From contig NZ_JALUXE010000004.1 in NCBI RefSeq assembly GCF_027019125.1, positions 21,785 through 85,784 of the forward strand: a stretch of 64,000 bases of DNA, given 5' to 3'. A model generated the notes under the pieces. It did no database searches and was not told the DNA's origin. It saw nothing but the letters and a program-made list of their open reading frames with translations. A program made the translations under genes and the position numbers. Of the stretch, positions 11,591-62,101 are shown piece after piece. This DNA is from Roseovarius sp. GTDB lineage: Bacteria; Pseudomonadota; Alphaproteobacteria; Rhodobacterales; Rhodobacteraceae. The first letter of the stretch is position 1; each line of letters begins with the position of its first letter.

Positions 11591-11736
11591 CCGCCGTTTC
11601 CCGGTTCGTGTTCGCCCACAGGATACACGAGCACCGCTCGACGCAACAGCCCCGATGTCCCGTGCAACAAGCGCTTGATCCTGCCGCACGATCAATCAAG
11701 GTTTTTATCCCGCACATTCCGGTCTATAGAATCGCC

Positions 11737-12744
11737 ATGACCAGCCAAAGCCCACGCCCCATCGTCACCGCAGAGGACCCAAAGGTTCTCTTTGAAATCT
11801 TCGTGCAGCGCAAATACTGCGATCTCGAACTGGCCTCGATCATCCACACCCTGCAAATCGCCAACAAGGTGCATGGCGCTGAGCATTTCGGCTGGCGCAT
11901 CATCTCCGACCGTCCCGGCCTCGTGCAAAGCAGCGGTGCCGGGCTCGTGCGGGCCGAGCCGGTCATCCCCGATCACTGCCTCGCGGATTTCCTGATCGTC
12001 ATCGCCTCGAAAACGGCCGATCCGGCCGTCTGGATGGCACGAATCCGCAGCATGCGGCGGCTCGGGCGCTCGGTGATCCTGCTGGCGGATGCCGCGACCA
12101 CCTTCATTTCGCGCACCCAGATCGAAACCGGCGCCGTCACGACCCATTGGGCCGATGCCGTGATCCTGCGCGAGACCCAGGATCAGCCGCGCCTGACCGA
12201 GAACCTGTCGGAGTTTTCCAACGGCATCATCACCGCCGCCGGGCGCGCAGCCACGGCCGAGCTTGTGATCGGGCTCCTGGCCCGCGACCTGCCCGTGTCG
12301 GAAATCACCGAAATCGGCCGTCACCTGCTCTTGCCGGAAATCCGCACCAGTTCCAGCACACAGCCCTTCGCCCCCGAGGCGTTCCACAAATTCTTTGACA
12401 AGGCCGTGTCGGATGCCCTCGCCATCATGGAAGACAACCTGAGCGAGCCGCTCTCCATCGCGGACATCGCCGATGAGGTCGACACCTCGCAGCGCTGCCT
12501 CGAGCGCCGTTTCCGCGCCGTGTTCGAAACCTCGCCGGGGCATTACTACAAACAGTTGCGCGTGCGCCGCGCCCATCACCTGATCCAGAGCACGAAATTG
12601 CCGCTGATCGACATCGCCACCGCCACCGGCTTTGGCTCGACCGGCACGCTCTCCACGGCGTTCAAGAAATTCTACGGCGTGACGCCCTCTGACCTGCGCG
12701 GCAAACACCGCGAGCGCGTGCTCGACTACTCCGCCGAGGTGTGA
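11737..12744 (+). CDS. GlxA-family (DJ-1-like + AraC HTH) transcriptional regulator
   Basis: TTHW, IITAAG and C-terminal AraC HTH (LERRFR...IATATGF...FKKFYGVTPS). Confidence 0.88.
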   Translation: MTSQSPRPIVTAEDPKVLFEIFVQRKYCDLELASIIHTLQIANKVHGAEHFGWRIISDRPGLVQSSGAGLVRAEPVIPDHCLADFLIVIASKTADPAVWMARIRSMRRLGRSVILLADAATTFISRTQIETGAVTTHWADAVILRETQDQPRLTENLSEFSNGIITAAGRAATAELVIGLLARDLPVSEITEIGRHLLLPEIRTSSSTQPFAPEAFHKFFDKAVSDALAIMEDNLSEPLSIADIADEVDTSQRCLERRFRAVFETSPGHYYKQLRVRRAHHLIQSTKLPLIDIATATGFGSTGTLSTAFKKFYGVTPSDLRGKHRERVLDYSAEV

Positions 12745-13790
12745 ACCCGCACCGCGTCGGCCACCACCTGCGCCGCCGCCGCCCAATCGCCCAAGCCCGC
12801 CGCCGCCTGCCGCGCCGCCAAGGCGCAGCCTGCCCGCAACGCAGGCTCGTTCAGCATCCGCCGCAGCGCCTCGCCAAAGGCCGCGTCATCCTCGGGCGGC
12901 ACCAGAATGCCCGCGCCGGGGGCCACCGTCTCTGGCACCGCCCCCGCCTGCGTGCTGATGATCGGCAGCCCATGGCCCATCGCCTCGTCAAACACGATGC
13001 CATAGCCCTCGTAACGCGTCGCCAGCGCAAAGAGCGTGGCGCGCCCATACAGCGCCTCCAGCGCCGTCTGCGTAATCTCCCCCGCGATCTCGACCCGGTC
13101 CCACAACCCCAGATCGGCCCGCAGCGCGCGCAACGCCGCCACTGTCCCGGGCTCGTGCAAGCGCCCGACAATCACCGCCCGCCAATCCAGATCGGTGATC
13201 CGCGCCAAGGCCCGCAAGAGCACGTCATGCCCCTTGCGCCGCGCCAAGAGCCCCACCGACAGGATCAGCGGTGGCACCTCCGGCACCGGGCGCAGGTTCG
13301 GGGCCACAAACCCCGGCCGCGCCACGCTGATCCGTTCCGGTGCCACACCATAAGTCTCTTGCAAGAGGCCCGCGATATGCCCGCTCGTCACCACGATATG
13401 CCGCGCCCGGCTCAGGTTGGCCCGCTCCCGCGCGGCCATGGCCTGCGCCTGTGGCGCGCTCAGCCCCGGTTCCAGCGCGAGGGGATGATGCACCAGCGCC
13501 ACCATCGGGGCCGCCAGACGCGCCACCCCGTCCGGGTCGAGCGCGCCATAGGCCAGCCCGTCCACCAGGGCCGGACAGTCGCGCGGCAACGCACCCAGTT
13601 GCGCCAGCGCATCCGCCATGTCGCGCGCATCGGGATGCGGAAAACTGTCCCCCAACCGCAGATGCCGCAGCCTGATACCCCGCGCCACCAATGCCTCCGC
13701 CAACCGCCGGTCGTAGAGGTATCCCCCCGTCGTCAGCTCCGGATCACCCGGCACGGCAAAGGCCAACGCGCGCCCCGCCTCACGCGCCAT
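12726..13790 (-). CDS. Glycosyltransferase family 4
   Basis: TTGGYLYD, HHPL, EGYGIVFDEAMGHGLP (EX7E motif). Confidence 0.92.
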   Translation of the reverse strand: MAREAGRALAFAVPGDPELTTGGYLYDRRLAEALVARGIRLRHLRLGDSFPHPDARDMADALAQLGALPRDCPALVDGLAYGALDPDGVARLAAPMVALVHHPLALEPGLSAPQAQAMAARERANLSRARHIVVTSGHIAGLLQETYGVAPERISVARPGFVAPNLRPVPEVPPLILSVGLLARRKGHDVLLRALARITDLDWRAVIVGRLHEPGTVAALRALRADLGLWDRVEIAGEITQTALEALYGRATLFALATRYEGYGIVFDEAMGHGLPIISTQAGAVPETVAPGAGILVPPEDDAAFGEALRRMLNEPALRAGCALAARQAAAGLGDWAAAAQVVADAVRVHTSAE

Positions 13791-14745
13791 AGCGCACCCG
13801 ATGGCAGAGGGTGTCCGCCGCGGCCAGGATCGCCGGGTAGTCGCGCGGCAGATCGTCAAACCGGGTCTCGCCCGAAATCAACCGATCCAGCACCGGATCG
13901 GCCAAGAGCCGCAGCGCCACCTCCATCCGCCGCCGATAATCCCAGCGTGCCGCATGGCTGGCCGGGATACGCCCCACCTGGGACGAGATGATCTGCAACC
14001 GCCGCTGGTGAAACGCACCACCAAGGGCAACCCCGATCTCGCCGCTGCCATACCAGCTGGCCTCGACCACCCGCGCCTCGACCCCCGCAATCCTGATCGC
14101 CGTGCCAAGCCCTGCGGGGCTGGCCGTGGCATGGATCACCACATCCGCATCGCCCTGCGCCGCCTCAGGCTGCGCAAACCGACACCCGAACGCTTCGGCC
14201 AGCGCAGCCCGCGCCCCGTCGCGGTCAATCAAGGTGACATCCGTTCCCGGCACCCGCGCCGCAAGATAGCCCACGAGCGCCCCCACCGTGCCCGCGCCGA
14301 TCACCGCCACCCGGTCGCCAGGTGCCACCTGCGCATCCCACAGGATATTGAGCGCGGTTTCCATATTGGCCGCCAGCACCGCCCGCGCAGGCGGCACGCA
14401 ATCCGGCACCGGCACCGCCATTTGCGCGGGGCAGGCAAAGCATGTCTGATGCGGGTGCAGCACAAAGACCACCTGCCCCGCCCGATCCCCCGTGCTCACG
14501 CGCCCCACGGCGCAATAGCCGTATTTGACCGGCGCGGGAAACGCGCCCTCCTGCAATGGGGCGCGCATCGTGGCGTGCTCGCTCTCGGGCACCCGGCCCT
14601 CGAAAACCAGCCGCTCGGTGCCCCGGCTGATCCCGGTGTAGAGCGTGTCGACCACGACATCGTCCGGCCCCGGCTCTACCGCCACGGGGCGCAGCTCCAC
14701 CTGCCCCGGCGCCACGATCCAGAGCGCGCGCGCCGCTTGCGCCAT
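13780..14745 (-). CDS. MDR-family (zinc-binding ADH-like) dehydrogenase
   Basis: GISRGTE, KYGY, LHPHQ, Rossmann motif GAGTVG. Confidence 0.88.
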   Translation of the reverse strand: MAQAARALWIVAPGQVELRPVAVEPGPDDVVVDTLYTGISRGTERLVFEGRVPESEHATMRAPLQEGAFPAPVKYGYCAVGRVSTGDRAGQVVFVLHPHQTCFACPAQMAVPVPDCVPPARAVLAANMETALNILWDAQVAPGDRVAVIGAGTVGALVGYLAARVPGTDVTLIDRDGARAALAEAFGCRFAQPEAAQGDADVVIHATASPAGLGTAIRIAGVEARVVEASWYGSGEIGVALGGAFHQRRLQIISSQVGRIPASHAARWDYRRRMEVALRLLADPVLDRLISGETRFDDLPRDYPAILAAADTLCHRVRYGA

Positions 14746-14750
14746 GCCCC

Positions 14751-15569
14751 TCACCCCAGCCGCGCGGCCGGCTGGCGCGCATGCGGCCAGACCTCCGCCG
14801 CCACCCGCGCGCCCATCACGCAATCAAAGAGCACGTCCGAACCAAGTCCGTAAACCTGCGTTTCGGGCCGCCGCGCCTGCGCCAGCCGCGCCACGGGGCG
14901 CGTGGTCAGGCCCTGCGGCCCCGCCCCGATCAAGAGCGGCGCCACCGCCACATGCAGCCGCGCCAGCATATCCGCTTCTATGAAACGCGCGATCGTGATG
15001 GCCCCGCCCTCCACCATCAGATGATGCAGCCCCAGTTTGCGCAGGGCGCTGACAATGGCAGGGGGCGAAATCCAGTCCTTGCGCGGCAGGCGGATGATCT
15101 CGACACCCTCGGGGCGCGGCTTGTCCACCTCCTGAATGACGATCCGACGCGTGCCGTCCTCTGCGAACAAACGCGCGTCATTCGGCAACCGCCCCGAGGG
15201 ATCAATCACCACCCGCGCCGGATTCTGCCCCGGCACCAGACGTACGGTCAGGCGCGGGTCGTCGTGCAGGGCGGTCTTGACGCCCACGATCACCGCATCG
15301 ACCAGCGCGCGCATCCGGTGCAGATGCGCCAGCCCGTCCGGGCCTGACACATCCGCCGCATCGCCCGTGACGGTGGCCACCCGCCCGTCCAGCGATTGCC
15401 CGATCTGCGCCACGACCTGCGGCGTGCCGGGCGCGGCCAGCATCGACCCATAGAGCGCCATCGCCGCGCGCTCGCCCGTCGCCCACTCCCCGCAACACAG
15501 GCACGCCCGCCCCGCGCGCGCCGCAAGAATATGCTCCCAGACCTTGGGGGTGACTTCAGCACTCTGCAT
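14751..15569 (-). CDS. RibD C-terminal reductase-domain protein
   Basis: GQSLDGRVAT, LHRMRALVDAVIVGVKT, DDPRLTVR, MVEGG; no deaminase domain. Confidence 0.9.
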   Translation of the reverse strand: MQSAEVTPKVWEHILAARAGRACLCCGEWATGERAAMALYGSMLAAPGTPQVVAQIGQSLDGRVATVTGDAADVSGPDGLAHLHRMRALVDAVIVGVKTALHDDPRLTVRLVPGQNPARVVIDPSGRLPNDARLFAEDGTRRIVIQEVDKPRPEGVEIIRLPRKDWISPPAIVSALRKLGLHHLMVEGGAITIARFIEADMLARLHVAVAPLLIGAGPQGLTTRPVARLAQARRPETQVYGLGSDVLFDCVMGARVAAEVWPHARQPAARLG

Positions 15570-15676
15570 CCGGGTCTCCGTTTCGCGTTGCGTATCGGTT
15601 GATCGTCAGGGTTGCGCAGGCCAAGGCGGGTCGCGTTATGGTCTGCATAGCAGAGATAGACGGGTTTTCAAAAATG

Positions 15677-16456
15677 TCATGCCCGTCGGCCATCCCCCGG
15701 CGGCACCGCCAATAGGTCGAGATGGCCGATTTCCGCCCATCCCCCGGCAAGCGCCCGCAGGCGCCGCGCCTGCCAGCCCTCTGCCCCGGTGTATCCCGCC
15801 TCGCCCGCCGCCTGCGCAATCCCCGCGAGCAGCAGGCTCTGCATCTCCGCCACCTCCGGCCCCAACCGCCATGGGCTTGGCGCGAGATGCACCTCGTAAC
15901 CCAGCGACGCGAATATCCCGGCAGCGGTCTCTGCCGCCTCCGGGCCAAGGGCCGCGCCAAAGCCCTTGTCGCCCCGCTGATGCGCGTTGAACTGCGCGGT
16001 GATCGCCGCATCCTCCGCATCCTCGGGCGACCAGCGCATCACGCCGTCATAGCTGAGCGCGGCATAGAGCGCCGCGCCTTGCGCCGCCAACCGCGCCGCC
16101 AATGCCGCGACCCAGTCCCGCGACACGAGGTCAAAGAGCGCCGAGGCCGTCACCAGCCGCACACCCCCAAGCGGCAGGGCGTCGATCTCCGCCAGATCCC
16201 CCTGACAGATTTTCGCCTCCGGATGCAGCACCGCCGCCCGCGCCAGCAGGTCCGCGTCATTGTCGAAAAGACGCCACCCCGCGCCCGAGGCCCCGACATC
16301 CTCAAAGGCGCGCAAGGTCGATCCGGTGCCGCACCCAAGGTCGAGCACGCAGCCCCCCGGCCCAGCCAGCGCCACGGCGCGGCGCAAGAGCGACGCATCC
16401 CGCGCCACCCCGTCCGCCGGTTCCCGCAGCGCCAGCCATCGGGGGTCAAACCCCAT
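15677..16456 (-). CDS. Class I SAM-dependent methyltransferase
   Basis: WLALREPAD, VLDLGCGTGS, TASALFD. Confidence 0.88.
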   Translation of the reverse strand: MGFDPRWLALREPADGVARDASLLRRAVALAGPGGCVLDLGCGTGSTLRAFEDVGASGAGWRLFDNDADLLARAAVLHPEAKICQGDLAEIDALPLGGVRLVTASALFDLVSRDWVAALAARLAAQGAALYAALSYDGVMRWSPEDAEDAAITAQFNAHQRGDKGFGAALGPEAAETAAGIFASLGYEVHLAPSPWRLGPEVAEMQSLLLAGIAQAAGEAGYTGAEGWQARRLRALAGGWAEIGHLDLLAVPPGDGRRA

Positions 16457-16457
16457 C

Positions 16458-16853
16458 TCAGATGTCCGCCTCGTACCAGCCGCGCGCCACATGGCTTTCG
16501 TGCAGCATCACCCGGATACGGGCCAATCGCCCCGCATCGCCCAGACCCTCGGCGCGGGCAATGTCGCGCAGCCCGGTCCAGATGTGATGGCACAGGAATT
16601 CCGTTGTGGTGAACTTGCCCTTGAACTCGGGCTTGTCGTCCAGATTGCCATAGCGCAACGGTGCCAGCACCCGCGCCAGCGCCTCCGACGCAAGGCCGAT
16701 GTCCACCACCAGCCCATGCGCATCAATATCCTCGGTGTAGAATGCGGCATCGACCACGAATGTCGCCCCATGCACCCCCTGCGCGGGGCCAAAGACGGGA
16801 TCGGGCAGGGAATGGGCGATCATGATGTGATCGCGAACTTCGACGGCAAACAT
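16458..16853 (-). CDS. 6-pyruvoyl-tetrahydropterin synthase/QueD-fold protein (COG0720), non-canonical type
   Basis: 131 aa at the end of the 833-aa track ORF: MFAVEVRDHIMIAHSL..FGPAQGVHGATF...TTTEFLC...LHES. Confidence 0.88.
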   Translation of the reverse strand: MFAVEVRDHIMIAHSLPDPVFGPAQGVHGATFVVDAAFYTEDIDAHGLVVDIGLASEALARVLAPLRYGNLDDKPEFKGKFTTTEFLCHHIWTGLRDIARAEGLGDAGRLARIRVMLHESHVARGWYEADI

Positions 16854-16985
16854 GGGGCTTTCCTTCCTTGCATGGCAGGCGAGACGTAACACGCGCTCCG
16901 ATTGCGTCAAGCCTCGGGATCGCATCGGCAAAACCCCGCGCGCGCACAATAATTTCATTGGACCTGCGCCAGCATCGCCATAACT

Positions 16986-18806
16986 GTGGCACACAATCAG
17001 CGCGAGAGACCCATCGTGACAGAGTTGACCCCGAACCGACCGACCGCGCCTGCCGTGACGCCGATTGCGCCGCATCTGCGGCGTGCGCCCGCGCTGGCCA
17101 CCCGCCGCCGCATCGTGCTGGCGCTCAACGTGGTCACGGTCGCAGCACTCTTTGCCGCGATGTTCGCGCTCTTTCTGCCGCTCGGCATTACATGGGCCGA
17201 AGGTGCGATGCTCACGGCCTTCCTTCTGACCCTGCCCTGGCTTTCCATCGGTCTGTGGAACAGCATCCTTGGCCTCGCGCTCGACCTGCGCCATGGCGCG
17301 GCGGCCGCGGCTCATGTCACCCCGGCGCTTGCCCGCATCCGCGGCGACGAGCCGATCACGGCCCGGGTCGCCGTGGTCATGCCGCTGCGCAACGAAGACC
17401 CGGACGCCTCCATCGCCCGCCTGCGCCGCCTGGAAGAGGAAATCGCCCGCAGCCCCTATGCGGGGCGCTTTTCCTACCATGTGCTCAGCGATACCGATGA
17501 CGCCCGCGTCGCCCTCAAGGAAGAGGCGCGCATCGCGCAATGGCGTGCCGCACGGCCCATGGCGGCCATCTATTACCGCCGCCGCACCGACAACACCGGC
17601 TACAAGGCCGGCAATATCGCGGAATTCCTGCATGGTCCGCAAGGCGAGAGCGACCTTTTCCTGCCGCTCGACGCCGATAGCGAAATGGGGGCCGAAACCG
17701 TCTTTCGCCTGATCCGCGTGATGCAGGCCAGCCCCGAAATCGGCATGTTGCAAAGCCTCGTGACCGGCCTGCCCGCCCGCAGCTTCTTTACCCGCGCCTT
17801 TCAGTTCGGCATGCGCCACGGCATGCGCTCCTATACGCTTGGTTCCGCATGGTGGCAGGGCGATTGCGGCCCCAACTGGGGGCATAACATCGTGATCCGC
17901 ACCGCCCCCTTCCGCGACCATTGCATGTTGCCGGTGCTCGCCGGGCGCGGGCCGCTTTCGGGCGCGATCCTCAGCCATGATCAGGTCGAGGCGGTGCTCA
18001 TGCGCCGCGCCGGATACGAGGTGCGCGTTCTGGCCGAGGAATCCGAAAGCTACGAGGAAAATCCCCCCAGCCTGGTCGATTTCATCCGCCGCGAACTCCG
18101 CTGGATGAATGGCAACCTGCAGTATTTCAAACTGCTGTCCATGCCCGGCCTCAAACCCGTGAGCCGCCTGCAACTGGTGCTGGCAATCCTCATGTATATC
18201 AGCTCTCCCGCGTGGATTGCCTTCATCCTGATCGGCGCGGCCTTGGCTGGCACCGTCGACCAGATCAACGCCATTCCCGCCGCTGCCGGTCTCGCCCTCT
18301 TTGCCGTGCTGATGACGCTCAGCCTCAGCCCCAAACTCATGGGGCTGGCGCAAGTGCTGGCCTCGCCCGCGCGCTCGGCGGCCTATGGCGGGCGCGCCCG
18401 CGTGCTGGCGGGCGGGCTGGTCGAGATTGTCTTTTCGATGCTCACCTCGCCGGTCGTGGCGGTCGCGCTCACGCAATTCGCCATCGGTCTGATCTTTGGC
18501 CAGCGCATCGGCTGGAGCGCGCAACAACGCTCGCGCGAGCGCCTCGAATGGCATGAGGCCGCGCGCGTGCTCTGGCCGCAAACCCTGCTGGGCGCGGGGC
18601 TTTGCCTCTGGTTCTGGGTTCAGGCCCCTTGGGCGCTGATCTTTGGCGCGCCGGTGCTGCTGGCGCTGACCCTGTCCATTCCGGTGGCGGTGCTCACCAC
18701 CCTGCCCCGCCTCAGCCGCTGGTCGCAATCCACCGGCCTTTTCGACATCCCCGAGGATCGCCGCCCCGCGCGGCATGACCAGACCATCCACGCCAACACC
18801 GCCTGA
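16986..18806 (+). CDS. opgH: Glucans biosynthesis glucosyltransferase OpgH/MdoH-like (GT2)
   Basis: PLRNED, KAGNIAEF, LDADS, WGHN, SHDQVEA, RELRWMNGNLQ; multiple TM segments. Confidence 0.9.
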   Translation: MAHNQRERPIVTELTPNRPTAPAVTPIAPHLRRAPALATRRRIVLALNVVTVAALFAAMFALFLPLGITWAEGAMLTAFLLTLPWLSIGLWNSILGLALDLRHGAAAAAHVTPALARIRGDEPITARVAVVMPLRNEDPDASIARLRRLEEEIARSPYAGRFSYHVLSDTDDARVALKEEARIAQWRAARPMAAIYYRRRTDNTGYKAGNIAEFLHGPQGESDLFLPLDADSEMGAETVFRLIRVMQASPEIGMLQSLVTGLPARSFFTRAFQFGMRHGMRSYTLGSAWWQGDCGPNWGHNIVIRTAPFRDHCMLPVLAGRGPLSGAILSHDQVEAVLMRRAGYEVRVLAEESESYEENPPSLVDFIRRELRWMNGNLQYFKLLSMPGLKPVSRLQLVLAILMYISSPAWIAFILIGAALAGTVDQINAIPAAAGLALFAVLMTLSLSPKLMGLAQVLASPARSAAYGGRARVLAGGLVEIVFSMLTSPVVAVALTQFAIGLIFGQRIGWSAQQRSRERLEWHEAARVLWPQTLLGAGLCLWFWVQAPWALIFGAPVLLALTLSIPVAVLTTLPRLSRWSQSTGLFDIPEDRRPARHDQTIHANTA

Positions 18807-18834: not shown

Positions 18835-19425
18835 ATGACCGCCTTCAGACTGACAGCCCTCGGCGCAACGCTGGCCCTTGGCCTCGCGCCCCCCGCACAG
18901 GCCGAACCCGCGACATGGCAGATCGACCCCGACCATGCGGTCGTGGCCTTTACCATCATGCACGCAGGCTATGCCAAGGTCCTCGGCCGGTTTTCAGACA
19001 TCGAAGGCAGCTTTACCTACGATCCCGACACACAGGACCTGGGCGACGTGACCGCCCGCATCGGCGCGGGCAGCGTCGATACGGATCACGAGAAGCGCGA
19101 CGAGCATGTCCGCTCCACCGACTTTCTCGACGCGGGCGCCCATCCGATGATCACCTTCACCGCCACCGACAGCACCCCCACCTCCGAGACCACCGGCACC
19201 GTCACCGGCGATCTCACGATCCGGGGCGTGACCCAGCCCGTGACCCTCGATGTGACCCTCAACAAACGCGCCGACTACCCCTGTTGCCATGGCAAGGAAA
19301 CGCTCGGCATCTCCGCCACGGCTGAAATCCTGCGCAGCGATTTCGGCAGCACCTATGCCCTGCCCGATTTCGTGGGCGATGCGGTCAGCATCATTCTCGA
19401 ATTCGAGGCGATCCGCGCCGACTGA
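18835..19425 (+). CDS. YceI family periplasmic lipid/polyisoprenoid-binding protein
   Basis: Signal peptide; WQIDPDH, RDEHVRSTDFLD, GDLTIRGVT. Confidence 0.92.
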   Translation: MTAFRLTALGATLALGLAPPAQAEPATWQIDPDHAVVAFTIMHAGYAKVLGRFSDIEGSFTYDPDTQDLGDVTARIGAGSVDTDHEKRDEHVRSTDFLDAGAHPMITFTATDSTPTSETTGTVTGDLTIRGVTQPVTLDVTLNKRADYPCCHGKETLGISATAEILRSDFGSTYALPDFVGDAVSIILEFEAIRAD

Positions 19426-19553: not shown

Positions 19554-20804
19554 ATGCGCTATTCAGGATTCAAGGTCATCAAAGAGGCCCTCACCGGCCA
19601 CCGCGGCTGGGGCCCCGCATGGCGCGATGCCGCGCCGCAATCATCCTATGATTACGTCATCATCGGCGGCGGCGGGCACGGCCTTGCCACGGCCTATTAC
19701 CTGGCCAAGGAATTCAAGCAGGCGCGCATCGCCGTGCTGGAAAAAGGCTGGATCGGCGGCGGCAACGTGGGGCGCAATACCACCATCATCCGCTCCAACT
19801 ACCTGCTCGACGGGAATGAGCCTTTCTATGAATTCTCGCTCAAGCTCTGGGAAGGTCTCGAACAGGACCTCAACTACAACGCCATGGTCAGCCAGCGCGG
19901 GATTCTGAACCTGATCCACACCGACGCGCAGCGCGATGCCTTTACCCGGCGCGGCAATGCGATGATGCTGAACGGCGCGGATGCCGAACTCATGACCACG
20001 GCGCAGATCGTCGCGCGCTATCCGTTTCTCAACGTGAATGACGCGCGCTTCCCGATCAAGGGCGGCCTCGCCCAGCATCGCGGCGGCACCGTGCGCCATG
20101 ATGCGGTCGCCTGGGGCTATGCCCGCGCCGCCGACCAGCGCGGCGTCGACATCATCCAGAATTGCGAAGTCACCGGCTTCCGCATCGAGAACGGCACATG
20201 CCTCGGGGTCGAAACCTCGCGCGGCTTCATCGGCGCGAAAAAGGTCGGCGCCTGCGTCGCAGGCTCGTCCTCGCGGCTCATGTCGCATGCGGGCATGCGC
20301 CTTCCGATCGAGAGCCACGTGTTGCAGGCCTTCGTGTCCGAGGGTCTCAAACCCGTCCTGCCGGGTGTCATCACCTTTGGCGCCGGTCATTTCTATTGCA
20401 GCCAGTCCGACAAGGGCGGGCTTGTGTTCGGCGGTGACATCGACGGCTACAATTCCTACGCCCAACGCGGCAACCTGCCCGTGGTCGAGGATGTCTGCGA
20501 AGGCGGCATGGCGATTTTCCCGATGATCGGGCGCGCGCGCCTCCTGCGCATGTGGGGCGGCATCATGGACATGAGCATGGACGGCTCGCCCATCATCGAC
20601 CGCACCCATATCGGCGGCCTCTATTTCAACGGCGGCTGGTGCTATGGCGGGTTCAAGGCCACGCCCGCGTCAGGCTTTGTCTACGCGCATCTGCTGGCCA
20701 CCGACACCCCCCATCCCACCGCCACCGCCTATCGTTTCGATCGCTTCGCCAAGGGGCTGATGATCGACGAAAAGGGCATGGGCAACCAGCCCAACCTGCA
20801 TTGA
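19554..20804 (+). CDS. soxB: Heterotetrameric sarcosine oxidase-family subunit beta
   Basis: GGGGHG FAD motif, GRNTTIIRSNY, RHDAVAW, GNQPNLH end. Confidence 0.95.
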   Translation: MRYSGFKVIKEALTGHRGWGPAWRDAAPQSSYDYVIIGGGGHGLATAYYLAKEFKQARIAVLEKGWIGGGNVGRNTTIIRSNYLLDGNEPFYEFSLKLWEGLEQDLNYNAMVSQRGILNLIHTDAQRDAFTRRGNAMMLNGADAELMTTAQIVARYPFLNVNDARFPIKGGLAQHRGGTVRHDAVAWGYARAADQRGVDIIQNCEVTGFRIENGTCLGVETSRGFIGAKKVGACVAGSSSRLMSHAGMRLPIESHVLQAFVSEGLKPVLPGVITFGAGHFYCSQSDKGGLVFGGDIDGYNSYAQRGNLPVVEDVCEGGMAIFPMIGRARLLRMWGGIMDMSMDGSPIIDRTHIGGLYFNGGWCYGGFKATPASGFVYAHLLATDTPHPTATAYRFDRFAKGLMIDEKGMGNQPNLH

Positions 20805-20817
20805 GGGAGCGCGCACC

Positions 20818-21105
20818 ATGCTGATCAATCACCCCCTCCTTGGCCCCCGCGACGCCAGCGAATTCGTCTACAAGGGCGACGCCGCCCTCATCAACCGGCC
20901 CGACCCCGACGCGCCCGACGCGTTGGAGCAGTTCATCGACTACGGCTATCTGCGCGACAACCCCGCCGGTGCCCATCGGGAACTATGGTTCCACGAACAG
21001 GGCGACCGAAGCTGGCTTGTCGTCACCCGCAACACACTCACCCATGAAATCACTTCGGTGGAATTGGCCCGTGACGTGGCCCGCCGCGAAGGACGCTCCA
21101 AATGA
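20818..21105 (+). CDS. soxD: Sarcosine oxidase-family subunit delta (Cys-free variant)
   Basis: GPRD.SEF, YLRDNPAG, ELW.H, RNTLTHEI; position in the operon. Confidence 0.92.
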   Translation: MLINHPLLGPRDASEFVYKGDAALINRPDPDAPDALEQFIDYGYLRDNPAGAHRELWFHEQGDRSWLVVTRNTLTHEITSVELARDVARREGRSK

Positions 21106-39764: not shown

Positions 39765-40646
39765 ATGTTTGCCTTTTGCTCCGATCCAGCCAGCCTTGAC
39801 GGTCTTGCGTGGATTTCCTGCTACCTGACCACGTCCAAACACCTGCAACTTTACTATGCGGTGGGCACGGTTCTGTTGCTGCTGGCGATCACTGCACCGG
39901 CTGCGCTTGCCTTTGGATTTGGTGGGGCAATGGCCGCGCGGGCGCATCTGGCCCCCCTGCGCTGGTTCGGCAAGTCCTATATCGCCGTCGTGCGCGGCGT
40001 GCCCGACATCGCGTTCTTTCTCTTTTTCGTCATCGCGCTGGATCAGGCGTTTGAATGGACGCGGCATCAGATCCTGTGCCCAGATTGGGACCAACCGATC
40101 CGTCAGGGCAATGACTTTGTGGTCTGTCAGGCCGCGAAACTCCCCCTCGGCACAGCCCCGCAATGGGTGCATGAAACCTACGGCTTTGCCCTTGCTGTGC
40201 TGACCTTTGCCATCGTCTTTGGGGCCTTTGCCGCGAATGTGCTCTTTGGGGCCATGCGCGCCGTGCCCCGTGCCCAGATGGAAACCGCCGAGGCCTATGG
40301 CATGTCCCGTCGTCAGGCCTTCTGGCGGATCATGGTGCCGCAGATGTGGGTTTACGCCCTGCCCGGTCTTGGCAATCTCTGGATGGTGCTGATCAAGGCC
40401 ACACCGCTGCTCTTCCTGCTCGGGGTCGAGGATATCGTCTATTGGGCGCGCGAACTCGGCGCCACGGCCAATCCGCGATTTACCGACTATCCGCATGGCG
40501 ACTGGCGGATGTGGTATTTTCTGGGGCTGATGGTGTTCTATCTCGGCTTCACCCGCGTGTCAGAGGTCATGCTGGAGCGCCTCATGCAGCGCCTTACATT
40601 CGGGCAGGCCACGACCGGCGGTGAAGCGCAAAGGAAAGCGGCATGA
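39765..40646 (+). CDS. Polar amino-acid ABC transporter permease (HisQ-like)
   Basis: RGVPD, AVPRAQMETAEAYG, KATPL. Confidence 0.93.
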   Translation: MFAFCSDPASLDGLAWISCYLTTSKHLQLYYAVGTVLLLLAITAPAALAFGFGGAMAARAHLAPLRWFGKSYIAVVRGVPDIAFFLFFVIALDQAFEWTRHQILCPDWDQPIRQGNDFVVCQAAKLPLGTAPQWVHETYGFALAVLTFAIVFGAFAANVLFGAMRAVPRAQMETAEAYGMSRRQAFWRIMVPQMWVYALPGLGNLWMVLIKATPLLFLLGVEDIVYWARELGATANPRFTDYPHGDWRMWYFLGLMVFYLGFTRVSEVMLERLMQRLTFGQATTGGEAQRKAA

Positions 40647-41630
40647 GCTGCATACCTTTGCGAACCACACTAAGCCATTTTGGATGCGCACCCTTCCAAC
40701 CATTCGGATATGTCTCTGATAAAATCATCCTCGTCTTGGGTGATGATGCCATCCGCTTGAACTACGCCTACGGCTGCCTTAAAAAGTCGCTCAATGCGCT
40801 TAATTGGCCAATTCGCTATTTCTGCAAGAGCCTCGTCCAATTCCGTTTGCGTTGGACGCGTTCGTCGCACCAAACGTCCGAGTTTCTCAAAGCCGTCCAG
40901 ACCGGGCAGAACATCCAGAACACCTTCATTCTTAAGGCATTCAGCTTCAGTTTCGGTAAATTGCATGATCCTATCAACCTCTTCAATGTGAAGCAGATCA
41001 TCCGCACGCGCAGCTGCCGAAAGCACGACAATCGCTGCTTTGAGTTCTCGCCGAAGCATTGTGTAAGGAGAACTAGAATAGCTGGATTTACCGACGCTAT
41101 CTTCTTTCAAACTTGTAAGTTCAACCTCGTAACCAGAATCCCCTGCGATCAGTTCACCAATGAGAAGCTGTGCGTCTTCAACGACGCCGTCATCATCAAT
41201 AACCCCTTCGATTCGATCCAACCTGAACGTTCTGTGAGCCCTTCGTTCATGGCAAATCGCACCGACATAGAATATTCCCCCGCGGTTCTCTACCCACCGC
41301 GTAGTTATTCGTCTTCGGCTGAAGTTATCTCCCGCGTCGCGGTAGTCGATGACAAGGAAAAGAGGCTCCAAGTTATAGCGGCGAGTTTGAGGAACAATTG
41401 GGTTATTTTCATGCTGGAGTTCGCGGCACTCGTGCTCAATGTCAATTCCGAGTTCGACGTCAACAAATCCACTTGGTGGAAGTTCAAAAACTACAGTAAC
41501 TGCTTCAGTTTCGCTCGGCGTCCGGCCTCTCAACCAAGAAAAAAATCTCATTCACTCGTTCCCCTTAATCAAAGTAAGCGCATGGAATTTAAGCTGCACA
41601 TCTGTCAACTGAGGTGTCAAGCATGAGCTG
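40641..41630. mobile_element. AT-richer single-gene cassette bounded by a 10-bp direct repeat, inserted between two permease genes
   Basis: GCATGAGCTG at 40641-40650 and 41621-41630; hand counts of three 60-nt lines give 43-55% GC vs 60% on one flanking line; no transposase or terminal inverted repeats. Confidence 0.85.
40670..41551 (-). CDS. WYL domain + TerB-like domain fusion protein, no HTH
   Basis: WYL: IDYRDAGDNFSRRRI...YVGAICHERRAHRTFRLDRI; TerB-like: LSAAARADD...EE...AAVGVVQADG...E; SD-like AAGGGGA upstream. Confidence 0.85.
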   Translation of the reverse strand: MRFFSWLRGRTPSETEAVTVVFELPPSGFVDVELGIDIEHECRELQHENNPIVPQTRRYNLEPLFLVIDYRDAGDNFSRRRITTRWVENRGGIFYVGAICHERRAHRTFRLDRIEGVIDDDGVVEDAQLLIGELIAGDSGYEVELTSLKEDSVGKSSYSSSPYTMLRRELKAAIVVLSAAARADDLLHIEEVDRIMQFTETEAECLKNEGVLDVLPGLDGFEKLGRLVRRTRPTQTELDEALAEIANWPIKRIERLFKAAVGVVQADGIITQDEDDFIRDISEWLEGCASKMA

Positions 41631-42429
41631 TCTGGAGACCATTCAGGCCTATGGGCTGCGCGCCATCGGCATCGGCGAGCGCCTCTTGCCGCAAAGCGAT
41701 TTCACCCTCTGCCAGCAGGTCACGCTGATCGGCTCCGGCCTGATCTGGAATATCTATTTCGGCTTGTTCGCCCTCGTCAGCGGCTTCATCCTCGCGACTG
41801 CCGTGGCACTTGGCAAAGGCTCACGCAACCGCGTGATCCGCAAACTGTCCGAGTGGTTCATCTTTGTCTTTCGCGGCTCGCCGCTCTTCATCCAGTTTTT
41901 CTTTGCCTATTTCTTCTTTCTTTCTCTCAAATCGGTCTCGCCCTTCTTTGATATCCTGACCTCGGCCTGGCTTGGCGCGTTGATCGTGCTTTTCCTCAAC
42001 ACGGCCGCCTATTCCGGCGAGATCTTCTATGGCGCGCTGCGGTCCATTCCCAAAGGCGATGTCGAGGCCGCAGATGCCTATGGGTTTTCCGGTTGGCCCC
42101 GCTTTCGCCGGATCATCTGGCCCACCATGCTGCGGCTCGCATGGCCTGCCTATACCAATGAGGCGATCTTTCTCTTTCATGCCACGACGCTGGTCTTTTT
42201 CTCGGGCTTTCCGGTCTGGCAACAGCGCGGCGATGCGCTCTACTATGCCAAGTATTTCGCCGACAAGACGTTTAACCCCTTCGTACCCTACCCGATCCTT
42301 GCGGGCTATTTCATCCTGCTCACGCTGGTGGTGATCGGCGTCTTTGGCCTGATCAATCGTCGGCTCAACCGTCACCTGCCGCAGGAATATCGCCGCAAGC
42401 TTAGCCTGCGGGTGAACCTGATCCGCTGA
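41623..42429 (+). CDS. Polar amino-acid ABC transporter permease (HisM-like)
   Basis: FRGSPLFIQ, NTAAYSGEI, EAADAYG. Confidence 0.93.
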   Translation: MSCLETIQAYGLRAIGIGERLLPQSDFTLCQQVTLIGSGLIWNIYFGLFALVSGFILATAVALGKGSRNRVIRKLSEWFIFVFRGSPLFIQFFFAYFFFLSLKSVSPFFDILTSAWLGALIVLFLNTAAYSGEIFYGALRSIPKGDVEAADAYGFSGWPRFRRIIWPTMLRLAWPAYTNEAIFLFHATTLVFFSGFPVWQQRGDALYYAKYFADKTFNPFVPYPILAGYFILLTLVVIGVFGLINRRLNRHLPQEYRRKLSLRVNLIR

Positions 42430-58890: not shown

Positions 58891-58980
58891 GGAGAGGTGC
58901 CGGAGTGGTCGAACGGGGCGGTCTCGAAAACCGTTGTGGGGGCAACTCCACCCAGGGTTCGAATCCCTGTCTCTCCGCCA
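58891..58980 (+). tRNA. tRNA-Ser(CGA)
   Basis: Acceptor GGAGAGG/TCTCTCC, anticodon arm GCGGT-CT-CGA-AA-ACCGT, long variable arm, T-arm CAGGG-TTCGAAT-CCCTG, encoded CCA. Confidence 0.97.
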
Positions 58981-59325
58981 CAAATCTTTATTTTCATATT
59001 GTTTAACAACAAGTTACCATACTTTAAGAGATTGTCTTCCCACACTTTTTCCCACGCTTATATTTGAGTGGTAGGGGCTTTTCCGAGCATCGGACTTTTA
59101 AGCTTTGAACTGACATTGTGAGAATGTTGCCATCCACGCCGGTCCTCAAACAAAGCTGTCAGACTTTCACCCCGCCCCCCCTTTCAATAGCATTGCCTAC
59201 GGTGGAGCACAAAGAGCAGGACTTAACCTTCCGGCCATTCTCTCGAATTAAAATTCTTGGATTGCTCAAGTCGGTGCTCTGACGCACGTGGAAATAGCGG
59301 TCGAGGAGCCGCGCACTCCTATAAC

Positions 59326-60303
59326 TCAATCAGATTTGATATCTGCCGTTTTCGATTGATTGTAGCCGTAGGCTGAATCAAGATTTTCAGTAACGATCTC
59401 ATCGATGACTTTTATCTGCGCATCTTCAAAGTAGTCTCGATATCCACCGACTTTGGCACGCCGAACCTTGTAGCTATCTGGAATACTCTTATCGCCCGGG
59501 TTTAAACGCGCACCGCTAGTTCGAAAACTCTGCTCGGCCTCTTTCTTCTTCATGTTTTCGTACGAGGCGTAATCGACCGCCTCTGTTATCTGCGCTGCAC
59601 TGGCGGGAATTTCTAGGAACCGAGCGACCCGGGCTAACTCATTGACCGGGTCGGCCCGCATGTTCTCGTATTTGACAATTTCATGCGCGCGGGTGTTTAC
59701 CAATTCCTCTGCCCAGCTATTCATGAAGTTAATGATCCTGCGTAGCCCGCTTCTGTCATCTTGCACAAACTCGAACATCGAAAGATCGCTTCCGTGAGGT
59801 GGATAAAAGCTAAGCTGCTTCTTCCATGGTTGTGTGCGAAAGCGCCAATGAAAAAAACTTGAGACCACAACATCGCGAGGGTCCCGCACCATCAAAAGGA
59901 CCTTCTTGTCGTAGAAATCGAGCTTCGTCGATGTATTGCCAGAATAATCCCGGATAAACTCGTCATGTGTGAAAAGCAGACGTGGAATGCGACGGTCTAT
60001 GTAATGGAAATTGTCGAATCCGATCACAGCATCTTTTGGCAGATCATATACCTGTTGATAGAGCCGCGAGATCATTACTCTTAGCCAGGTGCGTCCGCTT
60101 TTTGCGTAAGAAACAATGACCGCATCAGCGCTTTGAAGCTGATCATACTGCTCGCGTCCTCTCAATTGCCGCTCGGCACCAAGACGTTGTTCATGATTTG
60201 CTCTCGTCAGGCTGAGATGCAATCTAACAATGCTGCGTCGCGCTCTTCTTCGGGCTTGATGAATGAGCTGGGGGAGCGCTGCACGCATGGTTCTTGTGCT
60301 CAT
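59326..60303 (-). CDS. PAPS-dependent sulfotransferase (Sulfotransfer_1-like)
   Basis: 5'-PSB SYAKSGRTWL, 3'-PB VRDPRDVVVS, KYENM, KVRRAKVGGY. Confidence 0.9.
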   Translation of the reverse strand: MSTRTMRAALPQLIHQARRRARRSIVRLHLSLTRANHEQRLGAERQLRGREQYDQLQSADAVIVSYAKSGRTWLRVMISRLYQQVYDLPKDAVIGFDNFHYIDRRIPRLLFTHDEFIRDYSGNTSTKLDFYDKKVLLMVRDPRDVVVSSFFHWRFRTQPWKKQLSFYPPHGSDLSMFEFVQDDRSGLRRIINFMNSWAEELVNTRAHEIVKYENMRADPVNELARVARFLEIPASAAQITEAVDYASYENMKKKEAEQSFRTSGARLNPGDKSIPDSYKVRRAKVGGYRDYFEDAQIKVIDEIVTENLDSAYGYNQSKTADIKSD

Positions 60304-60516
60304 TGAGAATTCATCCGATCATCGAATACGAAATGCGCGCTTTCTTGAGGCCCGGGTCGTATGGGGCGGCATTTCGTGCTAATCAACCCACCCTATGATT
60401 TCTCTGACTCCGGTCTGTATGTCCATGCTAATTTCACCGAACTTAGTGCTTTTCTTATTGCATACCGTTGGCTTATATCTAGCCGCTCAACTAACACCAC
60501 TACGATAGCGGAAACC

Positions 60517-61446
60517 ATGACTATAAAATTTAGAGATATTGACGAGACAACGTTAGCTCTTTCTCCTGATACAGTAATTTCGTCGTTCTCCCCGTTCGTC
60601 TGTAATGATCAAAAATCTGAAGGTCGTATCCGCCGGATCATCAAGATTTGGTTCAAGACTGCGAAGCGGGTCGTGAGGCGCCTTTTCGGTAGAAAAAGTT
60701 CATCTAGCACTCGCAGCAAGGACGTGATCAAGGACGAGTACGAGGTCACTTGGTCGCGTGGTTATGCGGCGTATGATCTAGATGTAGGGTGCCGCAAGCC
60801 CGAACCTTGGCTTGTGCGAGGTAAAGGTATAATGGCTGACCGATCTGGCGTGCCGAGATGGCGCAACTTGATCCTCAACGCGGCTATAAAATCAATCAAG
60901 CCGCGTCGCGTGCTTGAAGTTGGGTGCGGTAATGGAATAAACCTCATCCTCCTCGCAAATCAGTTCCCCGATATTTCCTTCACCGGGCTTGAGTTGACAG
61001 ACGCAGGAAATCGTGTTGCACGTGATTTACAGAACGTTGCTACGTTTCCTTCCGCTCTCGCTGCATATCCTTTTATCCCCGCGACTGATCCCGAGGCGTT
61101 CCGCAGAATCAACTTTGTGCGTGGTGATGCGACCGCCATGCCGTTTGATGATGGCGAATTCGATTTGGTATTTACGGTGCTATCAATCGAACAGATGGAG
61201 CGCGTACGCGATAAAGCGCTGGCCGAAATCGGGCGCGTCAGCGGTGGCCATGTTCTGAATATGGAGCCATTCGCAGAGGCCAATTCTTCGCTGCTGCGTC
61301 GCGCTCACGTATTTGGACGTGACTATTTTCGCGGGAAGATAGATGATCTGAGCCAATACGGATTAGAACCCATCTGGGCCACGATGGATTTTCCTCAGGA
61401 GGTTCAGCTAGGAGCAGCACTCGTGTTGAGCCACAAGAGCATTTGA
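60517..61446 (+). CDS. Class I SAM-dependent methyltransferase
   Basis: VLEVGCGNG, GLE, GDATAMPFDDGEFDLVFT; start uncertain (60361 or 60517). Confidence 0.88.
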   Translation: MTIKFRDIDETTLALSPDTVISSFSPFVCNDQKSEGRIRRIIKIWFKTAKRVVRRLFGRKSSSSTRSKDVIKDEYEVTWSRGYAAYDLDVGCRKPEPWLVRGKGIMADRSGVPRWRNLILNAAIKSIKPRRVLEVGCGNGINLILLANQFPDISFTGLELTDAGNRVARDLQNVATFPSALAAYPFIPATDPEAFRRINFVRGDATAMPFDDGEFDLVFTVLSIEQMERVRDKALAEIGRVSGGHVLNMEPFAEANSSLLRRAHVFGRDYFRGKIDDLSQYGLEPIWATMDFPQEVQLGAALVLSHKSI

Positions 61447-61657
61447 TCTTTAAAGGGAAGGATATTGCTGGTCCTAGATCGGCTTTGGGACCTTAACTAG
61501 GATATGTGTATGTTCCCTAATCCCGAGTTCCACCATTTCGAATCTTTTTGTGTATTTTCCGAGAATTATAAGAACATTTCTAAAGTCCGAAAGTTCCTTG
61601 CCCTCCGAGATTATTGGCTGGGTCAAGAGCAAGGTTTCCATCCAAAAGAGCCCCCTC

Positions 61658-61736
61658 TGACAAAACCGACATAACCGACAAAACCCATCCGACGCGGCTT
61701 GCCCGCGAGGTTCTGTCGGTTTTGTCAGTTCTGTCA
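61658..61736. repeat. Two inverted arrays of three 9-bp repeats (iteron-like origin)
   Basis: TGACAAAAC-CGACATAAC-CGACAAAAC, 25-bp spacer, GTTCTGTCG-GTTTTGTCA-GTTCTGTCA. Confidence 0.85.
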
Positions 61737-61816
61737 GCCGCCCAAAGCGCACTTCGTTTTCGTGGTGAGAGACCCGCACAATGTTGCGAATTCAATGAAA
61801 ACCGTACGAAATAAAG

Positions 61817-62101
61817 CTAATTCCCAATCAGCGCATCCAACTCTTTCTGCTCTTCAATGAACTCACGCACGGACTTGCGCATATCGTCCAATTCGCGCGA
61901 CCTGCCACCGTGCTTCCACTGGGGGTGTGATGGCCCGGCCTTGTGACCACCGCCAGCGCCATGAACGCGACACACGGCCCAGCCACGCACTGCTGGGCAC
62001 TTGCAGCGCTCTCCAGAGCGCTTGGCCTTGGCACGGCACCTGGGGGCGTCTCTGAGGCGCTGTACCGGGCTGATGGGGTTAGCGTTACTTTTTCTCGCCA
62101 T
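61817..62101 (-). CDS. HGGxSTG-like zinc-finger protein (small-terminase-related)
   Basis: PRCRAKAKRSGERCKCPAVRGWAVCRVHGAGGG...WKHG. Confidence 0.78.
   Translation of the reverse strand: MARKSNANPISPVQRLRDAPRCRAKAKRSGERCKCPAVRGWAVCRVHGAGGGHKAGPSHPQWKHGGRSRELDDMRKSVREFIEEQKELDALIGN

Follow-up and report, generated by a model that had tools for sequence, protein, structure and literature searches.

The PTPS-fold gene and its neighbors in Roseovarius sp., in the 64,000-nucleotide stretch of its genome that was analyzed (the window), are best explained, with a probability we put at roughly one half, as the core of a PTPS-IV/SCO6650-type pathway in a reduced form. In this form, which we call 'type A', the core is accompanied by a paralogue of MdoH/OpgH and a YceI-family protein, and the product would go to a periplasmic glucan. 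The starting point of the pathway is probably an early, GTP-derived intermediate of riboflavin synthesis, to be converted to a compound that is methylated and bears a sugar; its product is most likely a GTP-derived glycoside delivered to the periplasmic glucan or the envelope.

The core consists of five intact, co-oriented genes on the minus strand (12726-16853). In order of transcription they code for a 131 aa SCO6650-like PTPS-IV protein of the COG0720 T-fold (16458-16853; PF01242, 71.7 bits), a 271 aa class I SAM-dependent methyltransferase (15677-16492; Methyltransf_25, with a VLDLGCGTG motif), a 272 aa reductase-only RibD_C protein resembling the archaeal-type pyrimidine reductases (14751-15569; PF01872, 129.6 bits), a 321 aa zinc-less, BchC-like dehydrogenase of the MDR family (13780-14745; TIGR01202 BchC, 56 bits, below its cut-off) and a 354 aa retaining glycosyltransferase of the GT4 family (12726-13790; Glycos_transf_1, 107.7 bits). 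In the profile search none of the five rose above an NCBIfam equivalog cut-off. The methyltransferase gene overlaps that of the PTPS by 35 nt, as it also does in relatives, the RibD_C and MDR genes are 5 nt apart, and the MDR and GT4 genes overlap by 11 nt; a single gap of 107 bp separates the methyltransferase and RibD_C genes. This layout, with the same families and the one gap, had been described in an earlier note made from the sequence, and both coordinates and domains were confirmed. That note drew the boundaries too narrowly, however, omitting two genes transcribed divergently from the PTPS gene on the plus strand. Beyond a 132 bp intergenic region (16854-16985), which contains one weak sigma-70-like match on the plus strand and no Rfam match, lie the genes for the MdoH/OpgH paralogue, a cluster-linked membrane GT2 of 606 aa (16986-18806; NF003958, 504 bits), and, 28 bp further on, for a 196 aa YceI-family periplasmic protein (18835-19425; PF04264, 151.9 bits). 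The seven genes are all intact, and dN/dS values of 0.06-0.33 against two other Roseovarius species show purifying selection on each.

Comparison with 80 related loci across the Alpha- and Gammaproteobacteria and Actinobacteria establishes the five genes as a real, conserved operon. The PTPS, methyltransferase, RibD_C and MDR genes are kept together in 76-80 of the 80, a grouping that far exceeds chance expectation and bears out the proposal that these genes co-occur across genomes. Individually, the methyltransferase is present in 78 loci, always adjoining the PTPS or the GT4, RibD_C and the MDR dehydrogenase in 76 each, the latter mostly directly upstream of the PTPS, and the GT4 in 54. An IMPase-type phosphatase is found in 47/80 loci, and the GT4 gene adjoins it in every locus that has both. 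GTP cyclohydrolase II (GCH II) is encoded within the cluster in 41 of the loci, with a Tyr at the product-determining position in 40/40; this supports the GTP origin suggested earlier. Most relatives further possess a lipid module comprising a CDP-alcohol phosphatidyltransferase (46/80), a flippase-like protein and a sulfatase-family transferase (one or the other in 35-45). Within 10 kb, 23 loci have OpgH-like genes and 16 have MdoG, and YceI adjoins the system in 11, in two different gene orders. No gene for lumazine synthase or riboflavin synthase was seen, either here or in the relatives' loci. Seven Roseovarius-type loci share the reduced layout, which also turns up in two other families. 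More broadly, the bacterial species that carry the PTPS-IV/SCO6650 gene set number in the hundreds; among them are rhizobia, Streptomyces, a model methanotroph and numerous marine bacteria. The set has been pointed out as a functional orphan from about 2006-2012 onward, and our literature search found no published function for it.

Judged by its sequence, the PTPS protein is a member of the PTPS-IV subfamily of COG0720. Its residues 21-30 read FGPAQGVHGA, as had been noticed before, and the first five of them (FGPAQ, residues 21-25) are invariant in an alignment of 18 orthologues and constitute the published PTPS-IV signature (PMC5445326). Genes with PF00925 and PF01872 domains have been reported beside members of the subfamily (PMC5445326), in line with the RibA/RibD-type neighbors that the earlier note had named; here RibD_C lies inside the operon, and GCH II is absent from the locus and present in the related loci counted above. 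Among relatives of solved structure, the orphan SCO6650 (PDB 3D7J; E=1.5e-34 over residues 1-128) is the nearest. In an alignment, neither the Cys/Asp-His triad nor the third of the zinc-binding His residues is preserved, with Ala24 in the position of the Cys, Arg67-Tyr68 in that of the Asp-His pair and Ala30 in that of the zinc-binding His, such that the CxxxHGH region takes the form A24...H28-G-A30. The ring-anchoring residues of PTPS-IV, namely TTTE and E119, are kept and invariant, and the gene has a dN/dS of 0.06. Automated annotation (PGAP) names the orthologues '6-carboxytetrahydropterin synthase', with the GO term queuosine biosynthesis.

The MdoH paralogue passes the NCBIfam MdoH model NF003958 (cut-off 419) and scores 727 bits against its closest model, NF003963 (cut-off 884). 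It is 33% identical to the canonical OpgH, which is encoded beside OpgG on another contig (C34); no MdoG/OpgG gene lies next to the paralogue itself. In a survey of the genus, the paralogue was recovered in 21 PTPS-positive genomes and one PTPS-negative genome (Fisher p=6e-11), with 10 of the 31 PTPS-positive genomes lacking it. In a phylogenetic tree the type A MdoH proteins form their own clade (100/100), which includes the MdoH proteins encoded beside the cluster in Methylosinus and Neorhizobium and stands apart from canonical OpgH. In Neorhizobium, mdoH-MDR-PTPS-GT4-MT is a single co-directional operon, and in Methylosinus OB3b mdoH adjoins the core in divergent orientation. In strain SC52 the system is divided between two plasmids, one with MDR-PTPS-MT-RibD and the other (pSC52_3) with GT4-MdoH-YceI, and the GT4 of the latter is 52% identical to that of our locus; one Rhizobium plasmid encodes a related MdoH with no cluster nearby. 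Based on this co-occurrence and adjacency, the MdoH paralogue appears to belong to the system, and YceI is a probable member. As the conserved partners are membrane or envelope proteins, we infer an envelope product rather than a soluble cofactor or pigment; nothing points to the soluble cofactor, pigment or UV protectant that was originally envisaged.

The RibD_C protein has no deaminase domain in the domain search; its nearest structures are the DARP reductases 6p8c and 2azn, its DDPRLT motif is conserved, and it scores 101.6 bits against TIGR01508 (equivalog cut-off 186.45). The MDR dehydrogenase, with BchC as its best NCBIfam match, displays a conserved GISRGTE motif where the zinc-binding Cys motif is expected, the zinc Cys being missing. 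The nearest structures of the GT4 are sucrose-phosphate synthase Tll1590, MshA and PimB'; the methyltransferase has no PDB relative at E<=0.01. The cluster had been noted to lack a GCH II paralogue, and our search of the genome for a ribA paralogue likewise yielded as its only strong hit the housekeeping GCH II (contig C2, 415479-416570). This copy groups with the non-cluster versions and carries the Tyr motif, pointing to the same product as the in-cluster enzymes. The genome has only housekeeping IMPases and no homologues of the lipid module, and altogether seven or more genes of the relatives are missing from both locus and genome. In the absence of a dedicated GCH II or IMPase, the flux would depend on housekeeping enzymes.

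We infer the route that follows as a whole; both the part given to PTPS-IV and the order of the third to fifth steps are guesswork. GCH II would convert GTP to 2,5-diamino-6-ribosylamino-4(3H)-pyrimidinone 5'-phosphate (DARP), which here must be supplied by the housekeeping RibA, since there is no dedicated enzyme. The reductase-only RibD_C would then reduce DARP to the ribitylamino form, in the archaeal/fungal order; with no deamination, the intermediate would be diverted from riboflavin synthesis. Next, the zinc-less BchC-like dehydrogenase may oxidize a side-chain hydroxyl and PTPS-IV, which has lost PTPS/QueD catalysis and kept the residues anchoring a 2-amino-4-oxopyrimidine ring, may rearrange or cyclize the intermediate. 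Methylation by the SAM-dependent enzyme would be followed by glycosylation by the GT4, which would use a phosphorylated polyol much as sucrose-phosphate synthase or MshA does, and by removal of the phosphate, for which relatives have the dedicated IMPase and this organism only housekeeping ones. Finally, the glycoside would pass to the dedicated MdoH paralogue, which may extend it, export it or both, placing the product on or in a periplasmic glucan with YceI as periplasmic partner. Most relatives would instead reach the envelope via the CDP-alcohol phosphatidyltransferase, the flippase-like protein and the sulfatase-family transferase, which is OpgB/LtaS-like. The product could be an uncyclized ribitylaminopyrimidine, 'pterin-like' being only a candidate label. 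We tentatively raise the possibility that the system makes an envelope decoration of a previously unknown class, in which a pyrimidine- or pterin-polyol glycoside that derives from GTP and may be redox-active is linked to a periplasmic glucan, here through the MdoH paralogue and in most relatives by way of a phospholipid head group that is then flipped and transferred, with cytochrome b561 and YceI as periplasmic or membrane partners.

The pairing of a GT4 with a PTPS-fold protein resembles the pteridine glycoside pathways. The system might make a soluble, reduced and methylated pterin glycoside that serves in the cytoplasm as cofactor, pigment or UV protectant, like the pteridine glycosides of cyanobacteria and Chlorobium, and to which the MdoH paralogue would be unrelated. 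The missing lipid module allows for a soluble end product, and many carriers, such as Roseovarius, Congregibacter and Pontimonas, come from sunlit water; however, soil Streptomyces, rhizobia and a methanotroph are carriers too, the PTPS catalytic residues are gone, and the relatives' phosphatidyltransferase, flippase-like and sulfatase-family genes point to the envelope. Given also that the MdoH paralogue tracks the cluster by statistics and phylogeny, and shares its operon in Neorhizobium, we regard this reading as doubtful. The many absent genes might alternatively mark a decaying remnant that, deprived of GCH II, IMPase and lipid module, no longer forms a finished product. This is unlikely for a set of intact genes under purifying selection, whose reduced layout recurs in other loci and for which the housekeeping RibA would yield the same GCH II product.

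Very improbable, in our estimate, is a role of PTPS-IV and RibD_C in F420/FO or riboflavin synthesis through an alternative archaeal-type early route. A remark citing unpublished work does link PTPS-IV to F420 synthesis (PMC5041015), RibD_C resembles the archaeal reductases, and in the versions from Streptomyces a GCH II of the Met type is accompanied by a creatininase-family (ArfB-like) gene. Yet the FO synthase CofH/FbiC was above cut-off in none of the 11 cluster-bearing genomes, Roseovarius sp. included, a normal bifunctional RibD match lies on contig C27, and neither FO nor riboflavin synthesis has a use for the GT4, methyltransferase and membrane partners. The PGAP name and its queuosine term would make the PTPS-fold gene simply a QueD or FolB replacement, an option with next to no probability: the protein reaches 28.8 bits against the QueD model TIGR03367 (equivalog cut-off 89.25), the CxxxHGH motif and catalytic triad are absent, neither queC nor queE is among the neighbors, and a canonical CxxxHGH QueD is encoded elsewhere (contig C33, 48287-48628). 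The earlier view that this is unlikely to be QueD is thereby upheld, and the PTPS-IV/SCO6650 gene is routinely misannotated as such.

Knowing what the PTPS-IV/SCO6650 gene set makes would define a new branch of GTP/riboflavin-precursor metabolism and, probably, a novel way of modifying the envelope or the periplasmic glucan. The version in this genome is naturally minimal, with five enzymes, a membrane glucosyltransferase and YceI, and lacks a GCH II, phosphatase and lipid module of its own; as the organism is culturable, the pathway lends itself unusually well to gene deletion, expression in other hosts and reconstitution in vitro.

Among known systems, the early steps of archaeal and fungal riboflavin/F420 synthesis (GCH II/III, ArfB and the ArfC/Rib7 reductase acting before deamination) share a GCH II-fed, reductase-only RibD_C closest to the DARP reductases with no deaminase in the cluster; however, RibD_C falls below the equivalog cut-offs, FO synthase is absent from the checked genomes, and the T-fold, MDR, methyltransferase and GT4 proteins have no counterpart there. 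The pteridine glycoside pathways of cyanobacteria and Chlorobium (GCH I, PTPS, sepiapterin reductase and pteridine glycosyltransferase) also build on a heterocycle derived from GTP and use both a PTPS-fold enzyme and a glycosyltransferase of group 1, but the entry proposed here is via GCH II rather than GCH I, the residues needed for PTPS catalysis are lost, and membrane and glucan partners are present. The GT4 recalls sucrose-phosphate synthase/SPP and MshA/MshA2 pairs, being closest to SPS and MshA and adjoining an IMPase-family phosphatase in relatives, whereas our locus has no dedicated phosphatase. With the synthesis and decoration of OPG (OpgH/OpgG, and OpgB transferring phosphoglycerol from phospholipid) the system shares an MdoH-family GT2 and, in relatives, MdoG and a sulfatase-family transferase of the OpgB/LtaS superfamily; the paralogue differs in its separate clade and lack of an adjacent OpgG, and we know of no OPG substituent that is GTP-derived. 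The locus SCO6650-SCO6655 of S. coelicolor has a clear PTPS-IV homologue bearing the FGPAQ motif. Loci of the Streptomyces type keep MDR-PTPS-GT4-MT and add a Met-type GCH II, a CDP-alcohol phosphatidyltransferase, a flippase-like protein and a creatininase-family gene, none of which is found here, where the MdoH paralogue and YceI stand instead.

The five genes at 12726-16853, all on the minus strand and exactly as the earlier note had described them, start with one for a PTPS-fold protein (PF01242; 16458-16853) and continue with those for a class I SAM methyltransferase (15677-16492), a reductase-only RibD_C protein (14751-15569), an MDR-family dehydrogenase (13780-14745) and a GT4 glycosyltransferase (12726-13790). 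The PTPS and methyltransferase genes overlap by 35 nt, 107 bp separate the latter from the RibD_C gene, 5 nt separate this from the MDR gene, and the MDR and GT4 genes overlap by 11 nt. None of the five products reaches an NCBIfam equivalog cut-off, no riboswitch or other RNA element was found within the locus, and scans of it for promoters and terminators gave no informative signal.

Residues 21-30 of the PTPS-fold protein read FGPAQGVHGA. The first five of them, FGPAQ, are the signature published for PTPS-IV within COG0720, a subfamily reported to have genes with PF00925 and PF01872 in its neighborhood (PMC5445326). When its residues are mapped by profile alignment to rat PTPS and QueD, Ala24 stands in place of the catalytic Cys, Arg67-Tyr68 in place of the Asp-His pair and Ala30 in place of the final histidine of HGH; the first two zinc-binding His (H14, H28), the ring-anchoring TTTE and Glu119 are invariant across 18 PTPS-IV orthologues. 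The protein scores 28.8 bits with the QueD model against a cut-off of 89.25, and a canonical QueD with the CARLHGH and DHRH motifs is encoded elsewhere in the genome (contig C33, 48287-48628). Motif, model score and this true QueD together rule out a role as QueD or FolB, as the earlier note had surmised for QueD; because the canonical QueD sits on C33, the window gene is a paralogue with another function. In the relatives' loci L111-L114 the public PGAP annotation nevertheless gives the orthologues of PTPS-IV the name '6-carboxytetrahydropterin synthase' along with a queuosine biosynthesis GO term, and the proteins so named lack the QueD motif; this naming is almost certainly wrong and a systematic misannotation. 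The nearest solved structure is that of the uncharacterised SCO6650 (3D7J; E=1.5e-34), which reportedly lacks both zinc and PTPS activity and has a pocket fit for a pterin-like ligand. We relied on this homology and set aside an AlphaFold model of PTPS-IV made from one sequence (pLDDT 67). Fusions among 1.8 billion representative proteins are confined to a single protein joining MDR to PTPS and some proteins with PTPS in triplicate, and are uninformative on the order of the pathway steps. P0135, P0146 and P0138 from the representative library (488-855 aa) each carry three tandem PTPS-IV-like domains.

Scanning one genome per species for relatives yielded 80 loci from Rhodobacterales, Hyphomicrobiales/Rhizobiales, Halieaceae (Gammaproteobacteria) and Microbacteriaceae (Actinobacteria), across which the cluster genes do co-occur: PTPS-IV is present in all 80, the methyltransferase in 78, the RibD_C protein and the MDR dehydrogenase in 76 each, and GT4 in 54. 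One of the loci, L001, is that of R. mucosus DSM 17069, whose PTPS gene is 99% identical to that of the window. Streptomyces-like genomes keep MDR-PTPS-GT4-MT together with GTP cyclohydrolase II (GCH II, the RibA enzyme). The gene family is patchy: 12 genera out of 151 in the taxonomic family have it, as do 31 species out of 81 in the genus and 7 Actinobacteriota genomes out of 301, and a plasmid or chromid location is common. Such a distribution, combined with 63-80% identity across classes, suggests that the pathway is mobile and accessory and at the same time strongly constrained.

Relatives usually have two more enzymes in the operon. GCH II, of roughly 380 aa, lies in the operon of 41/80 loci and an IMPase-family phosphatase in 47/80, the latter adjoining GT4 whenever both occur; the compact seven-gene form of locus L085 reads GT4-PTPS-MT-RibD_C-GCH II-MDR-IMPase. 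Genomes with an in-cluster GCH II have two strong copies of the enzyme, against one strong copy apiece in the source genome, in R. tolerans and in Ruegeria lacuscaerulensis. The sole strong copy of the source genome (contig C2, 415479-416570) groups in the tree with non-cluster copies at 75-84% identity, as against only 49-54% to the cluster copies; a second match, on contig C27, is weak (open frame of 406 aa). The earlier note had pointed out that the cluster holds no GCH II paralogue, and with the genome now checked the single strong copy proves to be of the housekeeping type. There is no dedicated ribA paralogue anywhere in the source genome, and the pathway there must draw on the housekeeping enzyme. 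An N-terminal domain of roughly 200 aa, which matches no Pfam family, is shared by housekeeping and cluster GCH II of Rhodobacterales (the C2 copy; L008:12091-13266; L086:12016-12660). The Tyr of the NK(M)R.Y motif is present in 40/40 proteobacterial cluster copies, as in housekeeping RibA; the Streptomyces-type cluster copies have Met at this position (KLRAMALQ; L105:14678-15337, L114:12645-14138), a change that Spoonamore et al. are said to have found in 2006 to make SCO6655 release a formylated product. In Streptomyces loci a creatininase-family gene adjoins ribA, and this family we take to be that of the archaeal deformylase ArfB, so that the Met-type GCH II with its neighbor matches the logic of archaeal GCH III plus ArfB. 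The Tyr-type and the Met-type plus creatininase routes both converge on 2,5-diamino-6-ribosylamino-4(3H)-pyrimidinone 5'-phosphate (DARP), which supports the view that the pathway truly starts from DARP or from DARP once reduced. The best structural relatives of the RibD_C protein are the archaeal DARP reductases 6p8c and 2azn, ahead of bacterial RibD, which by homology fits a predicted reduction without deamination.

What the boundaries drawn in the earlier note left out is the membrane side of the system. Added genes, first seen in the annotation of Roseobacter sp. CCS2 and a Congregibacter relative, were counted over the 80 loci: a CDP-alcohol phosphatidyltransferase (46), a sulfatase-family protein of the OpgB/LtaS superfamily (45), an FkbM methyltransferase (44), a flippase-like LPG_synthase_TM protein (35), cytochrome b561 (31), an MdoH-like GT2 (23, of which 7 are of the window OpgH type and 16 of the GT2x type), an exo/endo-phosphatase (EEP; 21) and MdoG (16). 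Parts of this module recur on an Agrobacterium pAt plasmid, on a Thiodictyon plasmid and in Streptomyces. For the phosphatidyltransferase, the sulfatase-family protein, the flippase-like protein, the FkbM methyltransferase and EEP, no homologue could be detected anywhere in the source genome.

Divergent from the PTPS gene, with 132 bp between them, lies a gene for an MdoH/OpgH-family protein of 606 aa (16986-18806), and 28 bp past it a YceI gene. Contig C34 carries a canonical opgG-opgH pair. The OpgH of that pair shares only 33% identity with the window paralogue, which, judged by sequence, is not canonical OpgH. Among 81 species of the genus, 22 genomes have the paralogue and 21 of these also have PTPS-IV (Fisher p=6e-11), the two lying a few kb apart at most in almost every case; the sole genome with the paralogue and no PTPS-IV is an 80%-complete assembly. 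The association persists despite changed gene order: loci L001-L004 have OpgH upstream and divergent, and loci L022, L050 and L057 have it downstream and convergent. On plasmid pOB3b1 of Methylosinus trichosporium OB3b a divergent mdoH adjoins MDR-PTPS-GT4-MT with RibD, and on a Neorhizobium plasmid mdoH-MDR-PTPS-GT4-MT is one co-directional operon with spacers of 2-16 bp or small overlaps; these two MdoH proteins and those of Roseovarius form a 100/100 clade separate from the MdoG-adjoining OpgH genes. Rhodobacteraceae strain SC52 splits the system over two plasmids, pSC52_1 (L118) with MDR-PTPS-MT-RibD and pSC52_3 (L117) with GT4, MdoH and YceI (GT4 and MdoH being 52% and 61% identical to the window proteins), which suggests one module for making the aglycone and another for glycosylation and export. 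The link is strong and not absolute, because one related MdoH on a Rhizobium plasmid stands with no cluster nearby.

On the other side of the operon, a GbdR-like AraC regulator (11608-12744) is convergent with the GT4 gene, their 3' ends overlapping by 19 nt, and past YceI lie soxB and soxD for sarcosine oxidase beta and delta (19554-21105). The regulator and these betaine-catabolism genes are conserved beside the cluster in the closest strains only, and are accordingly rejected as parts of the system. Further away, within 58891-64000, a low-GC stretch (50-56% vs about 63-69% elsewhere) comes after tRNA-Ser(CGA) (58891-58980). Two minus-strand genes in it specify a sulfotransferase (59326-60303) and a DUF3987 protein (62946-63977) and another specifies a methyltransferase (60361-61446); the stretch is probably a genomic island that inserted at the tRNA gene. 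GC also dips locally to 54% at 40001-42000, the rest of the window being at 60-70%.

From enzyme families and gene context throughout, we propose that DARP made by RibA would be reduced by RibD_C and so diverted from riboflavin synthesis ahead of deamination. The BchC-like dehydrogenase and PTPS-IV might then remodel the ribityl-diaminopyrimidinone, first by oxidizing it and then by rearranging it or closing a ring; conservation of the TTTE/Glu anchor implies that the 2-amino-4-oxo ring is kept. The methyltransferase would add a methyl group. GT4 would glycosylate the intermediate before a phosphatase removes the phosphate; the nearest relatives of GT4, namely SPS, MshA and PimB', have phosphorylated polyols or the head groups of lipids as their substrates. 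In the source genome the glycoside would probably be extended or exported into the periplasm by the MdoH paralogue. In most relatives the phosphorylated polyol may become a phospholipid head group that is flipped and transferred by an OpgB-like enzyme, often near opgGH. Both routes point to the periplasmic glucan or envelope as the destination.

We put the probability that this orphan pathway yields a DARP-derived methylated glycoside at about 0.75; the fuller statement, with the glucan as destination, we hold at roughly even odds. The soluble cofactor or pigment envisaged in the earlier note would sit well with the missing lipid module of the source genome, and we consider it doubtful. Were the cluster instead a decaying remnant, which is unlikely, its genes should not be under purifying selection (dN/dS in this lineage of 0.06 for PTPS and 0.12-0.33 for the remaining genes), nor should the same reduced layout recur in three families. 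The reachable literature makes a single functional statement, a remark in PMC5041015, based on unpublished work, that ties PTPS-IV to F420; an F420/FO role is rejected, no CofH/FbiC (FO synthase) being found in 11 cluster genomes.

The literature notes the PTPS-IV/SCO6650 gene set, and we found in it no functional study of SCO6650/6655 or PTPS-IV and no report of a product. The locus described here represents this already noted orphan in a minimal form that is new, and the new information it brings is that a dedicated MdoH subfamily and YceI take the place of the lipid module in the source genome.
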